A stretch of DNA of 64,000 nucleotides, taken from Escherichia phage Murica. Below are positions 1-35,565 of the stretch, piece after piece. The notes below the pieces were generated by a model, which made no database searches, was not told the origin of the DNA, and saw nothing but the letters and a program-made list of their open reading frames with translations. Each line of letters opens with the position of its first letter. The stretch's first letter is position 1. The stretch lies in the sequence record NC_041871.1; one strand, written 5' to 3'. Position numbers and translations under genes: made by a program.

Positions 1-1
1 G

Positions 2-556
2 AGGATCATAGCATTTTTTACCAACCTTGACAAGTGTAACGTTTGGCAACCCAAAAGGAAACTTGTTAGGGTCAAACCTGAAGCTGGCACGTAGCCAACT
101 GATCCCTCTACCTATCATGTCGGGTGACCATGATGGGCAGTGTGTACCCATGAAAGGATCAGATGTTTTTCTGTCGTTATGTAGCTCCCACGATACCAGA
201 TCTCCATACGAGGAAATAGGATTACCGTCGATAAGTATATCTTCTATACCTTCCAGAGGGTGATTGGCAAGAACAATAGCACAATGGAGGGTTCTGTCGC
301 TATCCTGCTCCAAAAACGCAAGCAATCCGGATGTGCGTGTCTTCCCATACACTACAGAGCAGGGTGCAGCAGAAGATCTGAGAAGCTTTTGTCTATCTTG
401 CTGACTTCTGTAAGATTTGTTGCCCTCAAAAATCTTATCCAGAGTTCTGGTGGTAACAGTGTTCAGGCTGTCAGCCAGAGCTGCCTTGGATGCGTTCCAG
501 TCATAACTTGAAGATCTTGCAGAAGCAACGATGTTATCAATCATTGCAATTGGCAT
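2..556 (-). CDS. tail protein, N-terminal part; gene runs off the window start (3' end missing)
   Basis: ATG at 554-556 overlaps the upstream stop (TAATG coupling); reverse frame has no stop from 556 down to position 2; the ORF track omits it because no stop lies in the window. Confidence 0.5.
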   Translation of the reverse strand, partial: MPIAMIDNIVASARSSSYDWNASKAALADSLNTVTTRTLDKIFEGNKSYRSQQDRQKLLRSSAAPCSVVYGKTRTSGLLAFLEQDSDRTLHCAIVLANHPLEGIEDILIDGNPISSYGDLVSWELHNDRKTSDPFMGTHCPSWSPDMIGRGISWLRASFRFDPNKFPFGLPNVTLVKVGKKCYDP

Positions 557-981
557 TAATACCTCCAGACATCAACAACTATAGAATCTTTCATGTCGAA
601 CATAAAGACCCCTTTATCACCTTTCGCCAAAATCTGGTTGTTCCAGAACACACCAGCGGTGAGCCCGTTCAGACCTTCGAAGATAACAATATCGCCACGC
701 TGAACCTGTTTAGGAGTATCTAGTCGAGTCATAAAGAGATCAAAAACAGTAGGCAGGTGTGTGGTTTTGAAACGGAGCATGCACCATCTTTTGCTTTCCA
801 ACTCTGTTTTATACGTTCCTTCGAAGTTAGAAAGAAAATCTGTTCCGTATTGGGCATCAACACACTTAGCTGCAAAGGTGCAGCAATCGTGGAATCCCCA
901 TTCAAAAGGTATGGTGGCCTCTTCGTCAAACACTTTCCACAATCTTTCTTGCCAATCCACTAAACGAGGGTGTGTGCTCAT
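556..981 (-). CDS. hypothetical tail-associated protein (possible Cys peptidase-like FHDCC motif)
   Basis: ORF track 556..993 trimmed to the ATG at 979-981, which has a GGGAGG RBS and TAATG coupling with the upstream gene. Confidence 0.5.
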   Translation of the reverse strand: MSTHPRLVDWQERLWKVFDEEATIPFEWGFHDCCTFAAKCVDAQYGTDFLSNFEGTYKTELESKRWCMLRFKTTHLPTVFDLFMTRLDTPKQVQRGDIVIFEGLNGLTAGVFWNNQILAKGDKGVFMFDMKDSIVVDVWRY

Positions 982-1532
982 TAAACCTCCCAAATGATCG
1001 GGCGGCTCGCCACCTGATCCACATATTTAAAAAATCTGTCATTATCGTTTCTTGAGCTGTGGCTTTCCTCCGTGTACCGATAAGGAAAACCTCTTAACCA
1101 ACTGTTGAAGATGGAAGAAATGGATATGGACAAAGCACTATTCTCACCCGTCTGAATAGCCATATCTGTTATAAGGCCGTCAAACAAGCCATTGGTTGTA
1201 ACAGGCAGACCATTCTCCATAGCGGTAATGTACAACGTGGCACGACACCCAGAATACTCCGTCTTCAGCAGATCACCCACATACTTAGGATCAAACCCGT
1301 TCAATGTCGCTACCACAGATCCGAAGTTGGTGGCATCTTTCTCAGACACAGCAGTTAATGTTGCTGATCCACCTATCCCTATAAAATGTTGCCCCTCAAT
1401 TACTACAACACCAGTGCCTGAGCACACCCTGACAGTTCCTGTCGGTAGCTCCAGCTTTGCAGCAATTAAGATCTCAACACCATCAAGCTCCAGCTTTTCA
1501 AGAAATAAATTATCTAATGGCGCTCTAATCAT
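981..1532 (-). CDS. hypothetical tail protein
   Basis: ORF track 981..1547 trimmed to ATG at 1530-1532 (GAGGA RBS); lies in the tail gene block. Confidence 0.5.
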   Translation of the reverse strand: MIRAPLDNLFLEKLELDGVEILIAAKLELPTGTVRVCSGTGVVVIEGQHFIGIGGSATLTAVSEKDATNFGSVVATLNGFDPKYVGDLLKTEYSGCRATLYITAMENGLPVTTNGLFDGLITDMAIQTGENSALSISISSIFNSWLRGFPYRYTEESHSSRNDNDRFFKYVDQVASRPIIWEV

Positions 1533-1533
1533 C

Positions 1534-2124
1534 TTAGAAATCCTCAAAGAAGTTGATAACTATATTATCACCTTTTTGCATAGCATCGACTTTTTGCTTA
1601 ATTTTATAAATATCTCTGATATGAAACCTACCCTTTGGGGATTGAGTTATTATCTCCATAGTATCCCCTGCGGCAATAGGTTTTCTAAGTCTTGGAGATA
1701 TGCTTATAACAGCAGACCCAACACCATCGCTACGCACTGGAGCGGTTACCACTTTCAATTCATCATTGACAGATATTTTATCCCCAGCTCTAGCTATGTC
1801 TCTGTTTGGCTCCCACCCAACCGTCTTCAAAAAATCGTCGTTACCAGTAGGCCCAAGGGCGATTGGCTCATTAGCTGTAACTGAGTGACCGTAAGTTTTA
1901 ATAAGAAAGATGTTTCCATCTTTATACACCTGATCAACAAAGCTCTTAAGCTCTAGCAACTGTGACTCGCTGATATTGGAAACCGTCAAAGTGCCTTTCC
2001 AGTTAGGTGTGGCATAGGTTACTTTTTGCGTTTTACCTGTAAACGGACTTTTAAACGTAACAATATCTGCCAGCAGCTCCAATCTAATATCTGGAAGGTA
2101 TCTAGGCCTTTCCCATAAAAACAT
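1534..2124 (-). CDS. hypothetical tail protein
   Basis: 196-aa ORF with GGAGG RBS upstream of ATG; position downstream of the long fibre gene. Confidence 0.5.
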   Translation of the reverse strand: MFLWERPRYLPDIRLELLADIVTFKSPFTGKTQKVTYATPNWKGTLTVSNISESQLLELKSFVDQVYKDGNIFLIKTYGHSVTANEPIALGPTGNDDFLKTVGWEPNRDIARAGDKISVNDELKVVTAPVRSDGVGSAVISISPRLRKPIAAGDTMEIITQSPKGRFHIRDIYKIKQKVDAMQKGDNIVINFFEDF

Positions 2125-2223
2125 TGTGCCTCCAGGTTAAACAATCATGATAGTTATTTTACCAGATTTTAAGTTAATACGCAATACAAACAAAAAGCCC
2201 CCGCCGAAGCGAGGGCAAAACAG

Positions 2224-5200
2224 TTACTTCAGTTTCTCTTGCAACCCAGTAACAACCTCTGTCAATTTTTTAACCTGCTCCTCAAGGGCGGTTATTTTAT
2301 CGTCCTGTTCCCTGCAAACCTGGACAAGCAAGCCTGTTACAGCTGCGTAGTCAACGTTATAGAACCTTTCTTCTGTTATCAAAGGAGTTCCATCTTGATC
2401 AGGATTTGGGATTTCCTTCCTTTTCACGAAAGACCCTACTGCCTCTGGCAATGCTTCCATGACCTCTTGAGCAATTACCCCCGCGTGAGGCATACCATTC
2501 TCTTTTAAAGTGTAGGTATAGCCCTTCATCTTACGGATAGCTTCCAGCGCGTTAGGAATAACCTCTATATTGTCCTTCAGGTCTCTATCAGAGCTCTGGC
2601 TCACAGTGGTGCACTCTACTACACCGTTGACAGCAAAATATCTTGACTTAGCCTCGTCTGACCTAGTGCCACAGTGGAATACCCAGCTAGCAGATGCAGC
2701 GTTGTCGTTTACCTGAAACTCAAGCACGTTCTTCCTGTCTGCGTTACCCCAATAGAACATTCTACCTGTATTGGTAGGTAAGTTATCGGCGTTGCTAGAA
2801 AGACTATTAGCACCGACATGAATTTCCAGTTGATTACTGGTTTCACCAAAAGTGTAATTAGGTCTTAACTGAATGCCTTTACCAGCATCGTGTCTCCATT
2901 CTTCCCAAGTAAAGACATCGCCAACGTAGTTACCAGCACGAGTATATCTGTCACCAAAATAGGTGATATATTCCTGCACACAACCTTGAGGTCTGTTAGC
3001 TGTGTTTTTGTAAACAAGCAGTGTACCAGCGTACGGAGCAGGGTAGTGGCGATCTATTACAAGTGCGTCAGCGTTTGAACCTTGGTGATAGAAACCTTCA
3101 CGGCTACCATCGTAGGCATTAAGGTCTTCTGTCCCCAGACCTTGACCACGGTGCTGAATAACTTTGTTCCACGCCCTGTGGTTACCACCCTCAATAGATC
3201 TGGTGTATAACTGATCAAGGCGACCAGCCATTTGGAAAGCATAGTTTCCAGAAAACGCCACAGACAGTCCACCAACAACCATCGAACCTTCCGGTCCGTT
3301 GACATTGCCAGCCATTATCTTGGAGGGGTTTGTATTACCAAACTGATTGTTCCAGTCAGCACCTGTCTGGCAAACATAGCCTCCAGGAGGGAAAAATGTG
3401 CCGTCTTTGTTGAAATTGTAGAACTTATGAGCTGTACCTACAACATCGCGAACGATAACTTGACCAGCTTCCGGAGTAGATCTGAACTCTGCCTGGCCTT
3501 GCAGTCTTGCACCATTACCACATTTAGAGGTAAAGGTGTTGTTGATCAGATCCTCTGTTCCTTCCGATGCAGCTTGGAACCCTGCGTTAGAGAACAGTGC
3601 TTTTCTAGTGGTCTGACTACCAGGACAAATGTAGTCAATACCGTCTGCCCAAAGCTCGACTTTAGGCATGTTCATTTTGCTCATCACTGCATAGCGTTCA
3701 GGAGTCCCCAGGTAGTGCCACATAGTTCCACCACCAGTGTAGAAACCTGATGTTCCTTTGAACTCAACCAGAGGTCTGGTGTTTGTTACATCATCACCTT
3801 TGATTGCAAGACTCAAATCTGCAGATTCCAGAGGAGCACAGAACTTGACACCATCTTGGTTACCTGTCACGTTGCCTACCTGCCAATCAGCCTCCCTGGT
3901 TGACACTTCTATTACAGTAGCGCCAGCATATACCGTAACAGGGAATGCACGTGCCTCTACATAGAATGCAACATACTCCTGCTTACCTCTGGTTGGAGAT
4001 ACACATCCGAGGATTGCTCTCTCGTTTTGGTAGAAATTAATAACCCCTTGGAAAGAATCACCTCTGTCTGTCCAGCCACCAGTTCTGTAGTGACACTGTA
4101 GTGTAGCACAGTTCATTGGGTCGCCGCCAGAAGAAGATCTGGTGACAATGGTTAAATCTGTCCCGATAGTTGCTGCAAAGTTGGGGTCAGTTCTGACGAT
4201 AATAGGATAATACTTACCGTCCTGCATAGCTGCAGTTCTAGGCAGGTTTACATATGGTCTAGCACCTGCTGCCAGAGGGATTCTGAATTGTGCTTGAGCA
4301 TCCCCTACAGTCCTGGCACTGGTACCACCACAAGCTATCGGTAGTGGTTCCCATTTGGCTTTCCGGTTGTTATAAACACCCCACTCAAGCGTTCCTTCAC
4401 CTTGCTCGTCCATACCGCCATCCCAAATGACCATCTTGGCGGCTTTCTTAGATCCCCAGAAACCTCTTTCTGCTCCTGAACTGCGGATCCATTCTCCAAG
4501 TCCCCAGTTTGTCAGCTGACCAGTAAGATCCCCAACCTGCATATATTTAGGGCAGTCTAATACGCCGTCTTCGCGGAAACCTAAATATTTATGAGTTTCA
4601 GATCCTTTTGCACCTTTGTGCAGGTGGATTGTCAGCCAAGCCTTATTGTCGTTTCTTACCTCAGAGTAGATCCTATATCCATGCTCAAGAACACCATCGG
4701 TGTTATATTTATCTCCATGGAGAATACCTGAGGCCGATTTAACATCTCCAGAGTATTGAGCTAAGTAAAGGTGCCCAAAGGCTGGCGAGTTGTTTTTACC
4801 AAGGCCAATATGAGATCTGAAGGTATCATCGTTACGAGGTCTGACCATCGGCTGCCATGCAGTCCACTGATTTGTGTTGGCCTGATAGGTTCTCAAATAC
4901 CAAACATCTACGTTAGAGAATGGATAGTATTCCTGACGACAACCTGTACCTCCGTTAGCATTGTTCTGCCAAACAATCAAGTGACCAGCACCAGAACCTG
5001 CAGGGTAACCATTTGCCTCGGTTGCATAAGCAGTCATCGGCTGGTAGTATACACCATCCTGATTACCAGTCAAGTTATTGATATTGAAATTTGACTCAAG
5101 AGCTGCACGTTGCTTATAGAAAGCCCCTAAGTTAATGCGTGCACCTGCGGCATCTCTGGCCCCCGTACCGCCTTGCTCTATAGCAAGAGGCTGCCACGAG

Positions 5201-6036
5201 GCTGTTTGTTGGTTCCACATGCCCCAACGGCCTGTTGCGTCAAGCTGCAAGTACCCTGCCGTGTTTAAATCATCTCCAGCACGGATAACTGTTCTTGTTG
5301 GGTTGTTTGCCTCCAGGCGTTTAAATTCATCACGAAGTGCTATTCTTTTTGTTGTTGCTACACCGTTGGTTACTGCGATGGTATACATGGCTCCGGATGT
5401 AGCGCCACGGAAAATACCATCAACAGTTGTAGTATCACGACGAGATACCACACCGTTCAGAAATTTTTCACCAGCTGCTACAGAAGGGTAGTTGGTGGTT
5501 CTTCCCTCTTCAATAACTGCAGGACCCACAAAGTTATCAAGGTGAATAACATCACCTACAGTGTGCACCGTACCAAAATCTACACGCTGTGCAAGTGCTT
5601 TAGCATCGTTAGCTGTCTGAACAGTAACATCCATTACATCCTGGACAGACTGCCCTTCGGCTGTCATGATCATAGATGCGCCAATGGTAGATTCCAGCTC
5701 CTCCCTTAGGGACGGGTCAGTATATACCATCCATGCAGCGTCAGTAATCCCACCATCGGAGTACGGTGAAGATAGTGCAGGAACAGTGTGTGGAAATTCG
5801 CCTTTCCAACGCAGGTAGAGATCTTCCTCTTCGAAATAGGCAAAATCCATTGGGCCGTTTAACTTACCACCTTCCTTAAAGGAGATTACATGAGAAACAG
5901 TCCCATCCACATGGACAACATCGCCAATTTTTACACGACGGGTCAGGTCTGGTTGTTGAACAACCAGGTAATCATCCTCTGTCACTGCGGTAGTGGCAGG
6001 AAGAGATTCAATTCTGACAACTTTAATATCAGCCAT
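2224..6036 (-). CDS. long tail fibre protein with C-terminal intramolecular chaperone (peptidase S74-like) domain
   Basis: 1270 aa; N-terminal motif shared with the 8671..9339 protein; C-terminus carries an SDRDLKDNIE...GYTY motif typical of autoproteolytic fibre chaperone domains, followed by a coiled coil. Confidence 0.75.
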   Translation of the reverse strand: MADIKVVRIESLPATTAVTEDDYLVVQQPDLTRRVKIGDVVHVDGTVSHVISFKEGGKLNGPMDFAYFEEEDLYLRWKGEFPHTVPALSSPYSDGGITDAAWMVYTDPSLREELESTIGASMIMTAEGQSVQDVMDVTVQTANDAKALAQRVDFGTVHTVGDVIHLDNFVGPAVIEEGRTTNYPSVAAGEKFLNGVVSRRDTTTVDGIFRGATSGAMYTIAVTNGVATTKRIALRDEFKRLEANNPTRTVIRAGDDLNTAGYLQLDATGRWGMWNQQTASWQPLAIEQGGTGARDAAGARINLGAFYKQRAALESNFNINNLTGNQDGVYYQPMTAYATEANGYPAGSGAGHLIVWQNNANGGTGCRQEYYPFSNVDVWYLRTYQANTNQWTAWQPMVRPRNDDTFRSHIGLGKNNSPAFGHLYLAQYSGDVKSASGILHGDKYNTDGVLEHGYRIYSEVRNDNKAWLTIHLHKGAKGSETHKYLGFREDGVLDCPKYMQVGDLTGQLTNWGLGEWIRSSGAERGFWGSKKAAKMVIWDGGMDEQGEGTLEWGVYNNRKAKWEPLPIACGGTSARTVGDAQAQFRIPLAAGARPYVNLPRTAAMQDGKYYPIIVRTDPNFAATIGTDLTIVTRSSSGGDPMNCATLQCHYRTGGWTDRGDSFQGVINFYQNERAILGCVSPTRGKQEYVAFYVEARAFPVTVYAGATVIEVSTREADWQVGNVTGNQDGVKFCAPLESADLSLAIKGDDVTNTRPLVEFKGTSGFYTGGGTMWHYLGTPERYAVMSKMNMPKVELWADGIDYICPGSQTTRKALFSNAGFQAASEGTEDLINNTFTSKCGNGARLQGQAEFRSTPEAGQVIVRDVVGTAHKFYNFNKDGTFFPPGGYVCQTGADWNNQFGNTNPSKIMAGNVNGPEGSMVVGGLSVAFSGNYAFQMAGRLDQLYTRSIEGGNHRAWNKVIQHRGQGLGTEDLNAYDGSREGFYHQGSNADALVIDRHYPAPYAGTLLVYKNTANRPQGCVQEYITYFGDRYTRAGNYVGDVFTWEEWRHDAGKGIQLRPNYTFGETSNQLEIHVGANSLSSNADNLPTNTGRMFYWGNADRKNVLEFQVNDNAASASWVFHCGTRSDEAKSRYFAVNGVVECTTVSQSSDRDLKDNIEVIPNALEAIRKMKGYTYTLKENGMPHAGVIAQEVMEALPEAVGSFVKRKEIPNPDQDGTPLITEERFYNVDYAAVTGLLVQVCREQDDKITALEEQVKKLTEVVTGLQEKLK

Positions 6037-6071
6037 TCTTTCTCCTGAAAGGGGGCAAACAGCCCCCTATG

Positions 6072-8669
6072 TTAAAGGTACAATCCACGGTATTGAGCAT
6101 AAAGGCCCAGACCGCGAAGGATTTCGCCAGAGTGATAGCCCACCGGATCAGAAACTGCCCAGCAGCCGTTTAAAACATTATCCCCATTGATGAAGTGGTG
6201 CTTTTGCAGTAGCTTCATACAGGCTTCTACAACAATGTCTATTTGAGGTATTGTCTCTGAATACCCGCACAGACCTAGCCAGCAGCAACCTGCAAGCCAT
6301 TCACCTACCACCCACATCCTGTCCCCTCTGTCTTGATAAGAATATCCCCCAGAGGTGTTAAAGTCTGTAGGCAGATTTCCTGAATGAGATGACTGGAATC
6401 TGTTGAGGAACCATGCCCATTTCTGGCAGAACAGGAATAATCTTTCATCAACAGGTTCTTTATGTTTCTTGAGCTCATAGATTGTGCGGCACGCAGCAAC
6501 AAAAGATCTTGACTGGAGCTTAGAGTTATCTACCATCTCCCACCAACCAGTCAGCCCTTCATTACCTCTCTGCCATACATAACGCGAGGCAACTGGACCC
6601 TCTGTCTTAAATGTATTATTATACCAGACTTGAGCGTCATACAGAAAGCCTATTGTATTTGACAATCTATGGCGATCTATGTTTTCTGCACCCATGCAGT
6701 ATACTGCTGGGTATTGCATGCCAGGGTAGGGCCAATTTGGCTTTTCCTCTAAGAGATAGTTTTCCTTATCTATCACCTTTCCGGCAGGGAACACACCTGG
6801 TGTGTGCCTGTATGCACCTTGCTTGTAGTTTCTGACATAGCAATCACCAACCTTAGCGGTTGATTCTGTCTTGCTTGCCATCCATACGCTAAACCATATT
6901 AGATAAGCATCCCTATCTGCAATATAGAACTGCGGCAGCGTGTTTACGCAGTACAGATCAAACAAGCCATTACCTATCTGCCTGTCGCTTAGGCTGAAAT
7001 CTACAGAGGTGAGCCCCTTAGGATTAGCAAAGAAAGGTTTAATCTCTTCTTCGGTGTGATGAGGTTGTGTCGGATCTAGTTTGAAATCTCCTAGAGTAAG
7101 AGTTTCTGTTATCCATTGTCCATTAGTGGCATATAGATCAGCATACCATAACCACCTATCTTTGTCAAGAAATTTGACCCTTACCATCTCATCATCTGAT
7201 CGATAAGTTACTGAGTTTAAAGAAATCTCTCTACCAAAATTGAAAGTTACTTTACCTCTTGCTATATTACAACGGGTGAAGTTGTCAGAGTGGTTGTAAA
7301 TGTCGGTATCATACTGCATACTAACACTAGCGCCACCGCTTACGACAATGTTTTCCTCTTTAGGTAAGAGATACGGATTACCGTCTTTACCAACTACCTC
7401 TACGAAATCAGTAACCTTGGCAACTATTTCTGTTACCTCTGCCCCTCCAAAAGGAACCCCTATCCTGTACTGTTTTTTGTTATTGTTGCCATCATTAAGG
7501 ATGAAATGTGGCTGGAACAGAACCCCTTCTCCTCCGAAATTCATAACAATTTCAGCATCTCTGCCTATTTTGTATGTAGTCCCTTTTTGAATTATTTCGC
7601 AAGGCTGGCGTGCGTTCATTCTAAAATTGATATACCCGTCACTGTCCCTGCTCATGGCAGGAACTGTTCCTGCAACAAGGCAAGTACCATCTGTAAACGG
7701 TGCCTTAATCAACGTGGTCTTCCTAAACAGTTTGTCGTAGGCGTTTATATCACTGAAATTAAGCAATTTGTTGTAAGACTGTTTAAACGCGGTGTAATAC
7801 TTTTCCTCACCTGTCAAGGTGTAGAGTTGATAACAAGCGTCACACCACATTTCTTCCCCGTCCAACTCTGGGGCCTGATTATCTGCAACCACGTTTATAG
7901 GATTTACAATTACAGGGGATCCTGCAGGTATCACCGATCCGCCCTGCTCTTGAGGTAATCTTACACAATAGGTCACCTTGTGGCTGCCTGTAACACCCTT
8001 ATCTTGTAATTGGATTGTGCCGAACTCTACAGACGTATGACCACTGTCGGCTATGCTACCGTTAGCCCAATAGCGGTTACCATCCCATGCTATGTACCAC
8101 TCAACCCACCAACTTAATCCGGATGTTGTCCAATCTGGGTTAGCATCTGTGCCACCGTAAACATCAGAGTCTACAGTGTTTCTTCCTAACACACCGTTAT
8201 ACGCTTGGAATGCCTTGTCAAGGTATTCCCCCCATGTCGGAGATCCAGCTGGGATTTTTCCTCTACCGTTGGTAAAAGACACCACCACATCTTTAAACCC
8301 ACCATGTGATGGAACCCCATCTGTGGATAGAGGGTAGTGGGACAATCTTTGCATTTTACTTTCTACTGCATATGTACCCAGAAGATGGCTATTGTAAGCT
8401 TCCCAAGCATCTTTTGCCCTATCCAGATAGAAATCGCTTTTCGATGCCCTGTATGCTTCAATGTATCCCAGAATCAACACAGCTTGGGACTCATGCATTG
8501 CCCAATCATTATTTATCTTATTACCTGCCCACCCTGCAGCTATAAGACCATCAGGGTTTACTAGCTTATTTTGTGTAGAGGTGTTGGTAATACCTGTGTT
8601 GTTATCGAGGCACTTCCTGTGCCCCTCAATCATCTGAAATACGTTATCAATGTTATGTTGAATACGCAT
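6072..8669 (-). CDS. tail-associated protein, putative polysaccharide-degrading enzyme (depolymerase-like)
   Basis: 865-aa ORF immediately after the short anchor-domain protein; Trp/Tyr/Asp-rich sequence suggestive of a carbohydrate-active fold; no anchor domain of its own. Confidence 0.45.
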   Translation of the reverse strand: MRIQHNIDNVFQMIEGHRKCLDNNTGITNTSTQNKLVNPDGLIAAGWAGNKINNDWAMHESQAVLILGYIEAYRASKSDFYLDRAKDAWEAYNSHLLGTYAVESKMQRLSHYPLSTDGVPSHGGFKDVVVSFTNGRGKIPAGSPTWGEYLDKAFQAYNGVLGRNTVDSDVYGGTDANPDWTTSGLSWWVEWYIAWDGNRYWANGSIADSGHTSVEFGTIQLQDKGVTGSHKVTYCVRLPQEQGGSVIPAGSPVIVNPINVVADNQAPELDGEEMWCDACYQLYTLTGEEKYYTAFKQSYNKLLNFSDINAYDKLFRKTTLIKAPFTDGTCLVAGTVPAMSRDSDGYINFRMNARQPCEIIQKGTTYKIGRDAEIVMNFGGEGVLFQPHFILNDGNNNKKQYRIGVPFGGAEVTEIVAKVTDFVEVVGKDGNPYLLPKEENIVVSGGASVSMQYDTDIYNHSDNFTRCNIARGKVTFNFGREISLNSVTYRSDDEMVRVKFLDKDRWLWYADLYATNGQWITETLTLGDFKLDPTQPHHTEEEIKPFFANPKGLTSVDFSLSDRQIGNGLFDLYCVNTLPQFYIADRDAYLIWFSVWMASKTESTAKVGDCYVRNYKQGAYRHTPGVFPAGKVIDKENYLLEEKPNWPYPGMQYPAVYCMGAENIDRHRLSNTIGFLYDAQVWYNNTFKTEGPVASRYVWQRGNEGLTGWWEMVDNSKLQSRSFVAACRTIYELKKHKEPVDERLFLFCQKWAWFLNRFQSSHSGNLPTDFNTSGGYSYQDRGDRMWVVGEWLAGCCWLGLCGYSETIPQIDIVVEACMKLLQKHHFINGDNVLNGCWAVSDPVGYHSGEILRGLGLYAQYRGLYL

Positions 8670-8670
8670 C

Positions 8671-9339
8671 TTAGATAGCTCCTGCGATAATCAGTGCCCC
8701 GTACCAAGTTAACCCGTTGTCGTAGGTTTCCAACTTGAAAATATCTGTTGCACCAGCTGTAAATGTTAGGATAGGATCTCTTCCGTAGGACCATTTAACA
8801 TTACCAGGCCAATAGACTTTGTTGCCGCCAGAGGTCTGAGTAATGCATACGGTTATAGTTCTCGCCACCCCTTCAAGACCTTCTGTTTGATTTTCAAAAG
8901 AGATTGTGGTATTTGAAGTTAGTCGAACCTTAAAGGTATCCGCAACTTCAAGATCCATATCAAGCTGACCACCGATAGATCCGTAATCAACTATTCTGCC
9001 AGAAGAAGTTGCAGCAAGCTCACCAAAAACAGACCAGGCATTTGCAGACACGCCCCCAGCACCCTCTACGGTGGAGTCTGGGAGGATTATTTTAGGATAA
9101 TCCCCGTTCCACGTGTAGTAGCGCTTAGTCTCTGGGTCATAAGCAAAGTCCTTCTTGCTCTTAAGATAACCACCCTCTGTGAAATAGACTATCTTAGTAA
9201 TACTAAGATCGTTGACAACATCGTCAATCTTAGCCTTTCTTGTCCCATCAGTCTGGTTGACAACCAAGAAGTCATCACTCAGGACTGTTTCTGCATCTTC
9301 AAGATCTGGAATTGGTATTGTAGGATAAGCTACAGCCAT
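8671..9339 (-). CDS. tail fibre-like adaptor protein (N-terminal anchor domain)
   Basis: 222 aa; its N-terminal 100 aa share a conserved pattern with the N-terminus of the 1270-aa fibre. Confidence 0.55.
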   Translation of the reverse strand: MAVAYPTIPIPDLEDAETVLSDDFLVVNQTDGTRKAKIDDVVNDLSITKIVYFTEGGYLKSKKDFAYDPETKRYYTWNGDYPKIILPDSTVEGAGGVSANAWSVFGELAATSSGRIVDYGSIGGQLDMDLEVADTFKVRLTSNTTISFENQTEGLEGVARTITVCITQTSGGNKVYWPGNVKWSYGRDPILTFTAGATDIFKLETYDNGLTWYGALIIAGAI

Positions 9340-9348
9340 GATTTCTCC

Positions 9349-10065
9349 TTAGTTAACATCAATAGCACGACCAGACTGGTTGGCAATAGCCTCATCATTG
9401 GAGGTAGCAATAACACCAGAGTATTCGCGCTCATCTGGAGCAAGCGTCCAGGTATTGCGGTTAATGGTTTGTTCTGCCTCAGTCATCAGCAGATCTTTAT
9501 CCTGAGTCAACAGAGAGCCTACAGGGATCGGGTTTTCCATCTCAGGGCCAGCATACTGGTTCCACCATGTGGCATCTCCTGTTCTAGGCAATCTGAAGTT
9601 GATCAGATAGTACAGTTTATTAGCCCACTTAATCCAACCCTCATCATCACAGAGAGAGGTTGTCCCAGAATCAGGCTGTGGGTAGGTGAACTGATCAAGA
9701 CCTACGAAAGCCAGCCTTACAATCTCGTTCTCTTTGGTAACAACCTCGAAGAACGCTTGGTATGTTCTCGATCTTCGGTCCATGGTAGACTGGAAGTTTA
9801 TGATGTTTAGCACATCCGGCTCTTGTCTTGCCACTTCCATGATCTTGTTATCAAGAACAGTCTTCATGACCTTCTTGCTGAGAAAGTCCATATAAGGGAA
9901 GCCAAACAGCTCGTCAAAGTACCAGCTCCCCTTCCACGTATTAAACCTCATCCACAAGCGCTGGCGCAGACTTACCTGGTTTGAATCTATCAACTCAAGA
10001 CCTTTGTCTATCGCCAAATCGCCTGTCTGCGGGTCCATCAATATATCACTATAAAGCGTAGCCAT
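9349..10065 (-). CDS. hypothetical baseplate/tail protein
   Basis: 238-aa ORF in the tail block, ATG start. Confidence 0.45.
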   Translation of the reverse strand: MATLYSDILMDPQTGDLAIDKGLELIDSNQVSLRQRLWMRFNTWKGSWYFDELFGFPYMDFLSKKVMKTVLDNKIMEVARQEPDVLNIINFQSTMDRRSRTYQAFFEVVTKENEIVRLAFVGLDQFTYPQPDSGTTSLCDDEGWIKWANKLYYLINFRLPRTGDATWWNQYAGPEMENPIPVGSLLTQDKDLLMTEAEQTINRNTWTLAPDEREYSGVIATSNDEAIANQSGRAIDVN

Positions 10066-32994: not shown

Positions 32995-33001
32995 ACATTC
33001 C

Positions 33002-33412
33002 TCATTTAAGTTTAATGCAGTTTTTAAGCTGGCGTTCCATACGATCCACAACCTTGTCTGGAACATCATGAATGCTTTTATTACCGTGGCGGTTTTCAAC
33101 CACGATTACGGTATAACTATACCCATGACTGATTGCCATGTCAACATATTCCTGCACATGTTTTTCTTTTGTAAACGTATTACTTACCACGATACGGTCG
33201 TATCCCATACGCATCATATCTTCTACGTTATCTTTGCACCATTTTGCTGCGAGTGTTACTTTACTTGCATCCCAGTTGTAATTGCCGTCATCGTCATACC
33301 AAAACATGTCATTCTCAAAATGTGGATACAGACCTTCTAAAGATAGCGCATTTGCCAGTGTTGATTTGCCAGACCCTGGCAGACCACGCACGATATATAG
33401 CATTTTAGACAT
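33002..33412 (-). CDS. P-loop polynucleotide 5'-kinase-like protein
   Basis: Walker A GLPGSGKST at the N-terminus; ORF track 33002..33469 trimmed to ATG at 33410-33412 with GGAGGATTGCT RBS. Confidence 0.6.
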   Translation of the reverse strand: MSKMLYIVRGLPGSGKSTLANALSLEGLYPHFENDMFWYDDDGNYNWDASKVTLAAKWCKDNVEDMMRMGYDRIVVSNTFTKEKHVQEYVDMAISHGYSYTVIVVENRHGNKSIHDVPDKVVDRMERQLKNCIKLK

Positions 33413-33440
33413 AGCAATCCTCCGTTTTAATTTTAATGAT

Positions 33441-33469
33441 AGTATACCTAACTGTTTTGTTAATTTCAA
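33441..33469 (-). promoter_or_regulatory. minus-strand early promoter (TTGAAA-17-TATACT) for the kinase/phosphatase operon
   Basis: -10 TATACT is the complement of 33441-33446, -35 TTGAAA of 33464-33469; RBS and ATG follow. Confidence 0.5.
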
Positions 33470-33472
33470 GTG

Positions 33473-33501
33473 TTGACACTAGGTTATTTGTGTGGCAGGA
33501 T
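33473..33501 (+). promoter_or_regulatory. plus-strand early promoter (TTGACA-17-TGTGG-CAGGAT, extended -10-like)
   Basis: consensus -35 TTGACA at 33473-33478; TG-containing element before a weak -10; back-to-back with the minus promoter. Confidence 0.4.
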
Positions 33502-33530
33502 AGACTGACAAAATGACAAATGAGGAACGT

Positions 33531-34448
33531 ATGATGAAGTATTTTAATGCAGATGACCTAGTAGACAAAGGTCTTGTAACCAGTCGGTATTATCCAGATC
33601 TTGGATTAAAGATCTATAAATATGCCAGAAAAGTATTCTACAACGATCTGTGGCATTTGTCTCCGCGTTTACTGGAGTGCCGAGGTATTGTTGTTGGCAA
33701 TGAGGGGAATGTTGTGGCATGGCCTTTCACAAAAGTATTCAACTTAGGAGAAAACTCCACCAACCTACCGGACAGTAAACTTGTTACTGCGGTAGAGAAA
33801 AAGAACGGATTCCTCGGTGTGGTATCATCTCATAAAGGTGAACTATTGTTCTCAACAACCGGGTCTCTTGATTCCCCATATTGTAACCTCGCAAAAGAAA
33901 CCATCAGGGAGCAATGTGGTAATTTAGATCTTATCAAGAAGGTTATGGGCAATGAAAACATGACATTCATGTTTGAAATTTGCCACCCTTCAGATCCGCA
34001 TATTGTTCAGGAAGATCATGGCGCATATTTGATAGGTTGCAGATATAATGATTCTGGAATAATGCTACCAGAAGCAGCTTTAGATGGGATTGCCAAATAC
34101 CTTGGTGCAAAACGTCCTCACACTGTGCGTGAAATTCCGTTCAGCTATGCAAAAGAATTAGCTGCAGAAACAAGAGGTGAAGGGTATATGATTCGTAAGC
34201 CTTACTACCCTTATGATCTGCAGCTGAAGATCAAGTCTCCATACTATCTGGCACGGAAGGCAGTAATGAGGGGTAAAGCTTGGAAGATTTGGGATGATGA
34301 TATCTTTAAACGTGTTGACGAAGAGTTTTACGGTATGGTAAAATTTATTCGTAGCAACTATACAGAAGATGTGTGGAATTGCTTATTAGAGCAGGAGCGT
34401 CGTGAGATACTGGACTACTATTTCCACAACGAGGACTATATGCAATGA
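33531..34448 (+). CDS. RNA ligase, T4 RnlA (Rnl1)-like
   Basis: N-terminal pattern LLECRGIVV...WPFTKVFNLGEN recalled as matching T4 RNA ligase 1; KxNG nucleotidyl-transferase motif (EKKNGF); start chosen at ATGATG after GAGGAA (track start 33513). Confidence 0.65.
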   Translation: MMKYFNADDLVDKGLVTSRYYPDLGLKIYKYARKVFYNDLWHLSPRLLECRGIVVGNEGNVVAWPFTKVFNLGENSTNLPDSKLVTAVEKKNGFLGVVSSHKGELLFSTTGSLDSPYCNLAKETIREQCGNLDLIKKVMGNENMTFMFEICHPSDPHIVQEDHGAYLIGCRYNDSGIMLPEAALDGIAKYLGAKRPHTVREIPFSYAKELAAETRGEGYMIRKPYYPYDLQLKIKSPYYLARKAVMRGKAWKIWDDDIFKRVDEEFYGMVKFIRSNYTEDVWNCLLEQERREILDYYFHNEDYMQ

Positions 34449-34795
34449 AGAAGTGGATTGTGTGGCTGGATGATTTGAGAGATCCGTCAAATTATGGACT
34501 CCCAGACGCTATTTGGCTGAAGAATTCCTCAGAGTTTATGGATTTTATTAACGATAAGGGAAAGCTCTACAGACGCGTTTCTGAGTGGCATATGGACAAC
34601 GACCTAGGAGAAGTATTCGAAGGATACGATTGCCTATCCATGTTGGAGGAAAAATTTGTATTCGGTAAGCCTCCAGTGATTGACAACGTGAAGATTTTCG
34701 TACATACTTCTAATCCATCGGCAGCTCGTAAATTTATGCTTGCTGCTGACTCATTCAAGAAGTTTGGAATAGAGATTAAACAAAACATCTACTGA
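34445..34795 (+). CDS. hypothetical small protein (possible receiver/flavodoxin-like fold)
   Basis: 116 aa, coupled to the ligase stop; pattern WLDD...D-DLG...HTS loosely resembles a CheY-like receiver domain. Confidence 0.35.
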   Translation: MKKWIVWLDDLRDPSNYGLPDAIWLKNSSEFMDFINDKGKLYRRVSEWHMDNDLGEVFEGYDCLSMLEEKFVFGKPPVIDNVKIFVHTSNPSAARKFMLAADSFKKFGIEIKQNIY

Positions 34796-34803
34796 GGACA
34801 CTT

Positions 34804-35565
34804 ATGCGACGACTGATTATTATCTCCGGTGCTGGTTTGAGCGCTGAATCTGGTATTCCCACTTTCCGATCTGGTAGCACTGCAATGTGGGAGAATTTCA
34901 GCATCGATGAGGTGTGCAACATCCACACCTTTGCCAAGAACTACTATAAGGTGCATGACTTTTACAATGCACGTCGTGTAGCTCTGGGCAGTGTTGATCC
35001 TAACCTTGCACATCTTCGGATCGCTGAGTGGTATTCCCGCTGGTCTGGTCGTGTGATCAACCTTACCACCAATGTAGATGATTTGCTGGAGCGTGCTGGT
35101 GTAAAACATGAAGATATTTTACATGTCCACGGGTATTTGCCTGAAATCACCTACGAAGATGCTGAAGGTAACGATGTAATTAAAAATATCGGATACACGG
35201 AGGTAGATACAGGCAAGTATACCTGGGTTAAGCCTAATGTAGTGTTCTTCGGTGAGGTTGCTCCTAAGTATACAGACATGTATGACCTGTTGACATCTCT
35301 CACAAGCAATGATATGGTGATCCTGGTGGGTTGTTCTAACACAGTTATTAATTTTAACTGGGAATTGTTTCCTGCTACTTGTAAAGGCACAAAACTGCTG
35401 ATTGTAAACAAGTATGACTCGCAGAGTGCAGATGGAAGTGGCATTTCACGTAGCGACCTTTATCAATATGAGGATCGCGGGATCCCTGTATGGTTTAACG
35501 GTGCTGTTGACGCTTTCTCTGATAAAGCATTTATTGAAACTGTAGAAAACTTTATGGAACTTTAA
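34804..35565 (+). CDS. Sir2-family (sirtuin-like) NAD-dependent enzyme lacking a Zn-ribbon
   Basis: GAGLSAESGIPTFR NAD-binding motif, TTNVDDLLERAG and HVHG catalytic His motif; no CxxC pairs. Confidence 0.8.
   Translation: MRRLIIISGAGLSAESGIPTFRSGSTAMWENFSIDEVCNIHTFAKNYYKVHDFYNARRVALGSVDPNLAHLRIAEWYSRWSGRVINLTTNVDDLLERAGVKHEDILHVHGYLPEITYEDAEGNDVIKNIGYTEVDTGKYTWVKPNVVFFGEVAPKYTDMYDLLTSLTSNDMVILVGCSNTVINFNWELFPATCKGTKLLIVNKYDSQSADGSGISRSDLYQYEDRGIPVWFNGAVDAFSDKAFIETVENFMEL

Follow-up and report, generated by a model that had tools for sequence, protein, structure and literature searches.

A short, conserved virion protein as the proposed carrier of a six-hairpin glycosidase-like protein in the lateral tail-fibre locus of an rV5-like phage

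A stretch of 64,000 nucleotides (nt) from Escherichia phage Murica (NC_041871.1), referred to here as the window, was analyzed with a focus on three adjacent genes that encode proteins of 222 amino acids (8671..9339), 865 amino acids (6072..8669), and 1270 amino acids (2224..6036). These three open reading frames (ORFs), and all other genes and features for which positions are given below, lie on the minus strand. The 7.1-kb stretch that they occupy shares 96.5% identity over 7116 nt with Escherichia phage EduardKellenberger (Bas59); of the 122 rV5-like records that it matches, 114 cover at least 80% of the query. By this sequence evidence, the window is assigned to an rV5-like Vequintavirus, and identity together with gene order places the three genes in the lateral tail-fibre locus. 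The analysis favors, at a probability of roughly 0.55, a baseplate-anchored adaptor (the 222-residue protein) carrying a six-hairpin, glycan-active protein (865 residues), beside a long fibre (1270 residues) with a paralogous anchor.

Evidence for the adaptor comes from the C-terminal part of the 222-residue protein and its genomic partner. Residues 108–222 (8674..9018) make up a conserved, putative beta-sandwich domain with the motif Q..G.NKV.WP.NVKW..G..P.L....G..D......D.G.TW.G. This C-terminal domain, proposed here as the docking platform for the 865-residue protein, is common to eight PHROG families of small tail proteins and is conserved upstream of 865-like genes. Searches with tblastn located the domain in 534 phage records and the 865-residue protein in 523, with nearly the same breakdown by genus. 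In the six lineages examined closely (PVP-SE1, the phi92-like phage Antha, the Yersinia podophage ISAO8, the Erwinia phage phiEa104, which belongs to the Ounavirinae, the Salmonella Rosemountvirus birk, and the Vibrio phage D531), the domain forms the C terminus of a protein of 157–269 residues whose gene overlaps or abuts the start of the 865-like gene. Among IMG/VR loci with an 865-like protein, an ORF bearing the domain ends no more than 60 nt upstream in 77 of 80, and one of the three exceptions has merely 203 nt of upstream sequence. At least 14 unrelated kinds of N-terminus precede the domain, among them the T7 tail-fibre N-terminal domain (PF03906) in ISAO8, whose protein has nothing else annotated as fibre-like; a lambda-type fibre N-terminus; and, in 44 prophage-like contigs, a major-tail-protein-like domain with fibre repeats. 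The backgrounds are myo-, podo-, and siphovirus-like. A constant C-terminal domain with a constant downstream partner and interchangeable N-termini is the pattern expected of an adaptor. An earlier reading of this DNA, made from the sequence only, had suggested that the short protein may carry the 865-residue one; the pairing across these loci and lineages supports that suggestion. The short protein is no mere accessory, since its orthologue is scored essential on E. coli K-12 and that of the 865-residue protein is not. Overall, the earlier reading is largely borne out.

Attachment to the virion would be provided by the N-terminal region that the adaptor shares with the fibre. BLASTP aligns residues 8–105 of the 222-residue protein with residues 7–105 of the 1270-residue protein (E = 3e-18; 38 identities in 99 positions, or 38%; one gap), and phmmer searches with the first 115 residues return E = 1.5e-18 and 8e-20 in the two directions. 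Both proteins score above the 25-bit gathering cut-off of PF18668 (Tail_spike_N), at 41.0 bits for adaptor residues 51–105 and 40.7 bits for fibre residues 46–103. The related N-terminal domain of about 100 residues that the sequence-only reading had recognized on both proteins is therefore solid by alignment statistics, and the motifs it quoted (LVV-Q-D-TR-KI-DVV, EGG-L, DFAY, and Y-W-G-P) are visible in the BLASTP alignment. Its further point that the 865-residue protein lacks this anchor also held, as that protein has neither a PF18668 match nor any similarity to the shared N-terminus. Searches of the 64-kb window and of the remaining Bas59 tail-fibre locus with tblastn and phmmer revealed no third copy of the anchor.

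Although the similarity spans the whole region, the shared part is not one domain, as had been assumed, but two separable pieces. The first is an anchor peptide of about 45 residues (adaptor residues 1–45, 9205..9339) with the pattern MA..P.I.I.DL....V..DDFLVVNQ.D.TRK, in which 17 of 36 positions are identical to the fibre N-terminus (47%). The orthologue in the phi92-like phage Antha (157 residues) contains the anchor peptide and the C-terminal domain but no D2. In the monomer model, the predicted local distance difference test score (pLDDT) of the peptide falls below 50, as expected for a segment that folds upon assembly. The second piece, adaptor residues ~46–107 (9019..9204), is the tailspike "head" D2 described by PF18668; residues 46–105 correspond to the D2 domain of the CBA120 and G7C tailspikes, and among Protein Data Bank (PDB) sequences the shared N-terminus matches the CBA120 tailspike proteins (TSPs) and G7C gp63.1. 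On the fibre, anchor peptide and D2 together occupy residues 1–105 (5722..6036), as recovered by BLASTP, Pfam, and phmmer. From this relationship we infer that adaptor and fibre use the same docking site. An analogous arrangement is found in PVP-SE1, where a colanidase, the third-position spike, has the same N-terminus as the small protein, as the GenBank annotation already states.

The predicted structure of the 865-residue protein indicates what the adaptor might carry. An AlphaFold2 model was built on a 40-sequence alignment from an exhaustive HMMER search and reached a pLDDT of 88.6 and a predicted template modelling score of 0.83. The search itself returned 92 clusters, versus only 6, 4, and 2 matches from word-indexed protein searches. 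The model opens straight with a barrel helix and has no head domain. Its twelve helices (residues 2–95, 269–305, and 655–864) form an (alpha/alpha)6 barrel, the hallmark of the six-hairpin superfamily, which is interrupted by two beta-rich inserts identified from the secondary structure of the model: insert 1 at residues ~96–268 (7866-8384) and insert 2 at residues ~306–654, between barrel hairpins (6708..7754). Across 40 homologues with 24–30% identity, a set of polar and acidic residues at helix starts is invariant or nearly so (E60, Q62, D270, D678, Q680, R721, and E849). By family conservation, the helical hairpin of residues 269–305 (7755..7865) presents a candidate catalytic site in its D270-G-E272 motif. 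The profile alignment pairs D270 with the Asp of a D-N pair in the CtGH76 chain 9r4p, where the family has D-G-E; we take this D-N position to be the catalytic Asp pair of glycoside hydrolase family 76 (GH76) with one Asp mutated. The family profile matches GH76 and cellobiose 2-epimerases on single hairpins only, at E values of 0.003–0.006, and no family-level sequence match was obtained to a specific CAZy family (GH8, GH76, GH88, or GH105).

A fold search of BFVD added only further phage "tail fiber" relatives. Some 865-like relatives have been annotated by others as glycosyl hydrolases, and the BASEL annotation notes "glycosidase domains." The S144 paper gives only an HHpred hydrolase hint for a member of the family, and no experimental report of activity for any 865-like protein was found in the literature searched. 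The description of this protein as enzyme-like survives at the level of a carbohydrate-active fold, but not as a classical beta-helix depolymerase. The DepoScope study counted alpha/alpha-toroid folds as ~1% of the depolymerases it found and excluded them from its training. The protein had also been called aromatic-rich, which applies only mildly (W+Y+F of 12.9% versus 9–12% in its neighbors).

The third component, orthologous to rV5 gp41 and Bas54_0027, matches PHROG 6578 over its full length and is annotated as a lateral tail fibre in relatives. Fibre residues 1149–1270 (2227..2592) constitute a Peptidase_S74 intramolecular chaperone (PF13884, 60.6 bits against a cut-off of 22) with the Ser-x4-Lys dyad S1149-DRDL-K1154. 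In a comparison of the window with slur16 and Bas59, the adaptor is 100% identical, the enzyme-like protein 99.0–99.7% identical, and the first 400 fibre residues ~100% identical, and only fibre residues ~1000–1148 (2593..3039), the putative receptor-binding distal region, drop to 40–58% identity. The same holds more broadly, as the adaptor has 100% amino-acid identity in many Vequintavirus genomes and, within the genus, the large protein is 99% identical. The locus, which the sequence-only reading had likened to host-range-determining regions, is accordingly not hypervariable in general, and the fibre tip is its only host-range variable. The adaptor–enzyme pair must be directed at a conserved target or play a structural part. 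Two features of the fibre shaft were noted separately: a weak internal repeat of the anchor region (residues 15–62 versus 138–184; E 0.03) and a "GGT(G/S)AR..." motif that occurs twice (~283–306 and ~563–586) and appears fibre-joint-like by eye, both of which may point to a shaft assembled from modules.

These genes are on record in more than 100 genomes already and form an ordinary rV5-type lateral-fibre module; the shared N-terminus and a glycosidase-like domain are likewise present in database annotations. Gene order runs from tape measure, tube initiator, plug, hub, and central spike to a sheath-initiator-type gene, followed by the 222-, 865-, and 1270-residue genes. The 238-residue sheath-initiator-type baseplate protein (9349..10065; PHROG 120/4233) is encoded directly upstream of the adaptor gene (PHROG 7760, E 8e-120) and is by gene order the equivalent of phi92 gp139, whose identity as a sheath initiator is based on the phi92 electron cryomicroscopy (cryo-EM) assignment; PVP-SE1 and the phi92-like phages keep this order. 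In rV5, the orthologues of the three genes are gp43, gp42, and gp41, respectively; further orthologous triplets are Bas54_0025–0027, Bas59_0024–0026, and PVP-SE1 gp51–gp50–gp49. The phi92-like phages have direct orthologues at the same place after the sheath initiator (gp140 and gp141 by gene order). In the rV5 virion proteome, determined by mass spectrometry, gp41, gp42, and gp43 were all detected, and the rV5 paper described the gp43 N-terminus as P22-tailspike-like and the gp41 C-terminus as endosialidase-chaperone-like. The rV5, PVP-SE1, phi92, and BASEL literature searched does not describe the small protein as carrying the large one. The BASEL paper calls the assignment of genes to individual fibres unclear; in the phi92 cryo-EM paper, gp140 figures as a fibre-like candidate and gp141 goes unmentioned. 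BASEL labels the small protein a "sialidase domain protein," which received no support from the Pfam, PDB sequence, or fold comparisons made here.

Published fitness data for Bas54 bear on whether the three genes act together. In the transposon sequencing (Tn-seq) data of the HIDEN-SEQ preprint for E. coli K-12, bas54_0025, the orthologue of the 222-residue protein, is essential (7 of 47 TA sites hit), and 0026 and 0027 are intermediate (94 of 189 and 154 of 238 sites hit), with the text of the preprint calling both dispensable. During liquid competition on K-12, all three genes are strongly depleted, with mean counts of 0.0, 3.1, and 0.2 for 0025, 0026, and 0027. On the uropathogenic E. coli (UPEC) strain CFE311, the only clinical strain for which fitness data are provided, the requirement is relieved (counts of 17.8, 52.1, and 16.6; log2 fold changes of +3.7 to +4.2; adjusted p <= 0.003). 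The neighboring genes 0028–0031 behave in the opposite manner, being dispensable on K-12 and required on CFE311. Based on the phenotype that they have in common on K-12 and CFE311, the three genes behave as one functional unit, distinct from the 0028–0031 module. In Extended Data Table 8 of the preprint, sheet S6 (K-12 versus CFE303) duplicates sheet S7 (CFE311), down to the same console line and numbers, and results for CFE303 are therefore not actually provided.

A simple model would describe the locus as encoding a lateral receptor-binding unit of an rV5-like myovirus, assembled from three co-transcribed virion proteins. The adaptor would be fixed at the baseplate periphery by its first ~45 residues and D2, probably as a trimer, and its C-terminal domain would hold the anchor-less 865-residue protein. 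The latter, as a six-hairpin (alpha/alpha)6 enzyme, would most likely bind or cleave a conserved glycan of the host envelope. The long fibre, predicted to be trimeric, would dock by its paralogous anchor at an equivalent socket, fold with the help of its C-terminal S74 chaperone, which would afterwards be cleaved off, and recognize the receptor by its variable distal part. In this model, we infer the binding of the C-terminal domain to the 865-residue protein, the oligomeric states, the identity of the socket, and the enzymatic activity and its substrate.

Several observations weigh against this model. The adaptor's monomer model is weak, at a pLDDT of 62, which leaves the C-terminal fold uncertain and makes fold matches suggestive only. 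At the sequence level, the 865-residue protein matches no Pfam or CAZy family and has no single-sequence match in the PDB; its candidate catalytic residues derive from a borderline alignment, and it could be a non-catalytic binder. On K-12 the adaptor is essential, whereas the enzyme and fibre tolerate insertions, from which it follows that the small protein must do more than carry the enzyme. In the cryo-EM maps of phi92 and Bas49/Bas54, the orthologues of adaptor, enzyme, and fibre are unplaced. Finally, natural fusions of adaptor and enzyme ("Rosetta stone" proteins) were sought and rejected: the hhalign probability was 1.4% (16 columns), and in hmmsearch P0033 alone gave a marginal result. 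Three 865-like homologues (P0025, P0033, and P0036) have N-terminal extensions of ~280 residues with a motif resembling the C-terminal domain's end, and PF18668 was absent from the six extended homologues inspected (P0008, P0015, P0016, P0025, P0033, and P0036).

The unequal fitness effects could also fit a different wiring, in which the 222-residue protein is the core peripheral socket and both enzyme and fibre hang, in a branched or serial fashion, from an adaptor–enzyme complex. The adaptor shows the most severe phenotype of the three in the K-12 data (essential, and with 0.0 counts), it is fully conserved, and it is encoded beside the sheath initiator. There are also structural precedents, as fibre II of phi92 attaches to the base of the L-shaped fibre I according to the cryo-EM paper, and Tail_spike_N heads of CBA120 dock on other spikes. 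Set beside the paralogous anchor of the fibre, which would allow it to dock directly at an equivalent socket, such a branched assembly appears unlikely. A further alternative would make the 222-residue protein an independent short spike with the C-terminal domain as its receptor-binding tip, its adjacency to the 865-like gene being a matter of shared inheritance and the 865-residue protein being attached elsewhere. Receptor-binding tips normally vary with the host, however, and this domain is maintained in phages of hosts as different as Vibrio, Yersinia, and E. coli. It also precedes an 865-like gene directly in nearly every locus examined, whatever the N-terminus or virion type, and in ISAO8 it follows a T7 tail-attachment domain in a protein with no other annotated fibre-like part. 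We regard the independent spike as very improbable. A separate question, compatible with the adaptor model, is whether the 865-residue protein has become structural or lectin-like and merely retains the six-hairpin fold. The absence of a family-level match leaves room for this, but the (near-)invariance of E60, Q62, D270, D678, Q680, R721, and E849 across the 40 homologues, the alignment of D270-x-E272 with the D-N pair of the CtGH76 chain, and the glycosyl hydrolase annotations given to relatives argue for catalysis, and loss of activity is considered rather doubtful.

The proposed adaptor model resembles known tail systems in part. In the podophages SP6, K1-5, and K1E, a gp37-type adaptor with a T7 gp17-like N-terminal domain carries enzymes. 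Here, too, a small protein with a virion-binding N-terminus lies beside an enzyme-like protein without an anchor of its own, and ISAO8 even uses the T7 tail-fibre N-terminal domain. Unlike in SP6 and K1-5, the docking domain is a different, previously undescribed beta-sandwich of ~110 residues, the passenger is an (alpha/alpha)6 barrel and probably not a trimeric beta-helix spike, and the pair is found on myo-, sipho-like, and podovirus backgrounds. For K1E and K1-5, the phi92 paper describes the fibres as an arm-like scaffold with the endosialidase at its tip. The likeness to CBA120 (TSP1–4) and G7C (gp66/gp63.1) lies in a D2 head (PF18668) that precedes the functional part and in the mounting of several receptor-binding proteins at one baseplate position. 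Here, by contrast, no D1 domain and no clear T4 gp10-like XD domain came to light, the peptide in front of D2 is unrelated, and the passenger enzyme has no D1–D2 head. Compared with six-hairpin glycosidases (GH8, GH76, GH88, GH105, and GH48) and AGE-type epimerases, the 865-residue protein shows 8–13% identity, and its barrel differs in being split by the two beta-rich inserts of ~170 and ~350 residues. The fibre shares a C-terminal S74 chaperone with a predicted cleavage dyad with K1F endosialidase, T5 pb1, and the long tail fibre of phage S16, but the remainder of the protein is unrelated to them.

Signals between the genes are consistent with a common transcription unit. At the adaptor–enzyme junction, a single nucleotide separates the stop codon from the ATG, and an AGGAG lies within the 3' end of the adaptor gene; across lineages, the junction is a 1-nt gap or an overlap of 1, 4, or 8 nt. 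A read-through or frameshift fusion of the 222- and 865-residue ORFs was considered and rejected, as the frames differ and no conserved slippery site is present. Between the enzyme and fibre genes (6037..6071), the sequence reads as a hairpin (GGGGGC-tgtt-tGCCCCC, 6 bp, G-C), after which come TTTC and then AGGAGA, a strong ribosome-binding site. The terminator scan missed this hairpin because its T-tail is short, and it might lower expression of the fibre relative to the enzyme. A strong intrinsic-terminator-like hairpin of eight pairs, seven of them G-C, followed by TTTTTGTTTG, was returned by the scan at 2197..2216; it begins 8 nt after the fibre ORF ends and terminates the three-gene unit.

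Beyond the fibre gene (window 1–2124 and past its left edge; Bas59 locus L002, 182–5589), a siphovirus-type tail-tip module lies within this myovirus baseplate locus, with genes orthologous to Bas54 0028–0031. It encodes a 196-residue distal-tail-protein-like protein (PHROG 1302), a 188-residue "tail protein" (PHROG 2048), a 145-residue DUF6950 protein, and a 1279-residue protein with lambda gpJ domains (Ig_J, Ig_J_second, and Phage_Tail_Tip). At the scale of the window, GC skew flips sign near 34 kb (~33000–35000), from negative on the left to positive on the right, as would fit structural genes transcribed in one direction and the remaining genome in the other. About 20 GenBank records labeled "Campylobacter phage" (MG0656xx; host Campylobacter jejuni) are 92–100% identical here to E. 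coli rV5-like phages, and their host labels look doubtful. Two variants of the gene pair were also encountered. In the 44 IMG/VR loci with the major-tail-protein-like type (contigs of 20–38 kb), a 562-residue protein encoded directly upstream of the 865-like gene joins fibre repeats and the C-terminal domain to an N-terminus of the major-tail-protein-like kind (PHROG 158), which suggests an enzyme mounted on a tail-tube-related protein. The metagenomic protein P0066 (293 residues) reverses the usual order, with ~190 865-like residues followed by the C-terminal domain (E ~1e-22), and may represent a recombinant or degraded gene.

More generally, the C-terminal domain and the split (alpha/alpha)6 protein may constitute a portable plug-in cassette that is mounted on any phage by exchange of the N-terminal anchor. 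No description of such an adaptor–enzyme cassette was found in the literature searched, and its generalization beyond rV5-like phages is the modestly novel part of this analysis. As a tentative extension, the cassette would account, in rV5 and phi92 types, for part of the unassigned lateral-fibre density, and the target of its enzyme would be a conserved envelope glycan required to infect rough, K-12-type hosts. A broad host range makes the rV5- and phi92-like phages valued, and cryo-EM studies leave densities unassigned; taking gp43-like proteins as carriers of gp42-like enzymes provides a specific and testable scheme of how one fibre set is wired. It also suggests an engineering route, in which the enzyme is grafted onto other phages by a swap of the adaptor N-terminus, and it flags an under-recognized class of virion enzymes, encoded as a pair in ~500 phage genomes and annotated there only as "tail protein" or "tail fiber protein."

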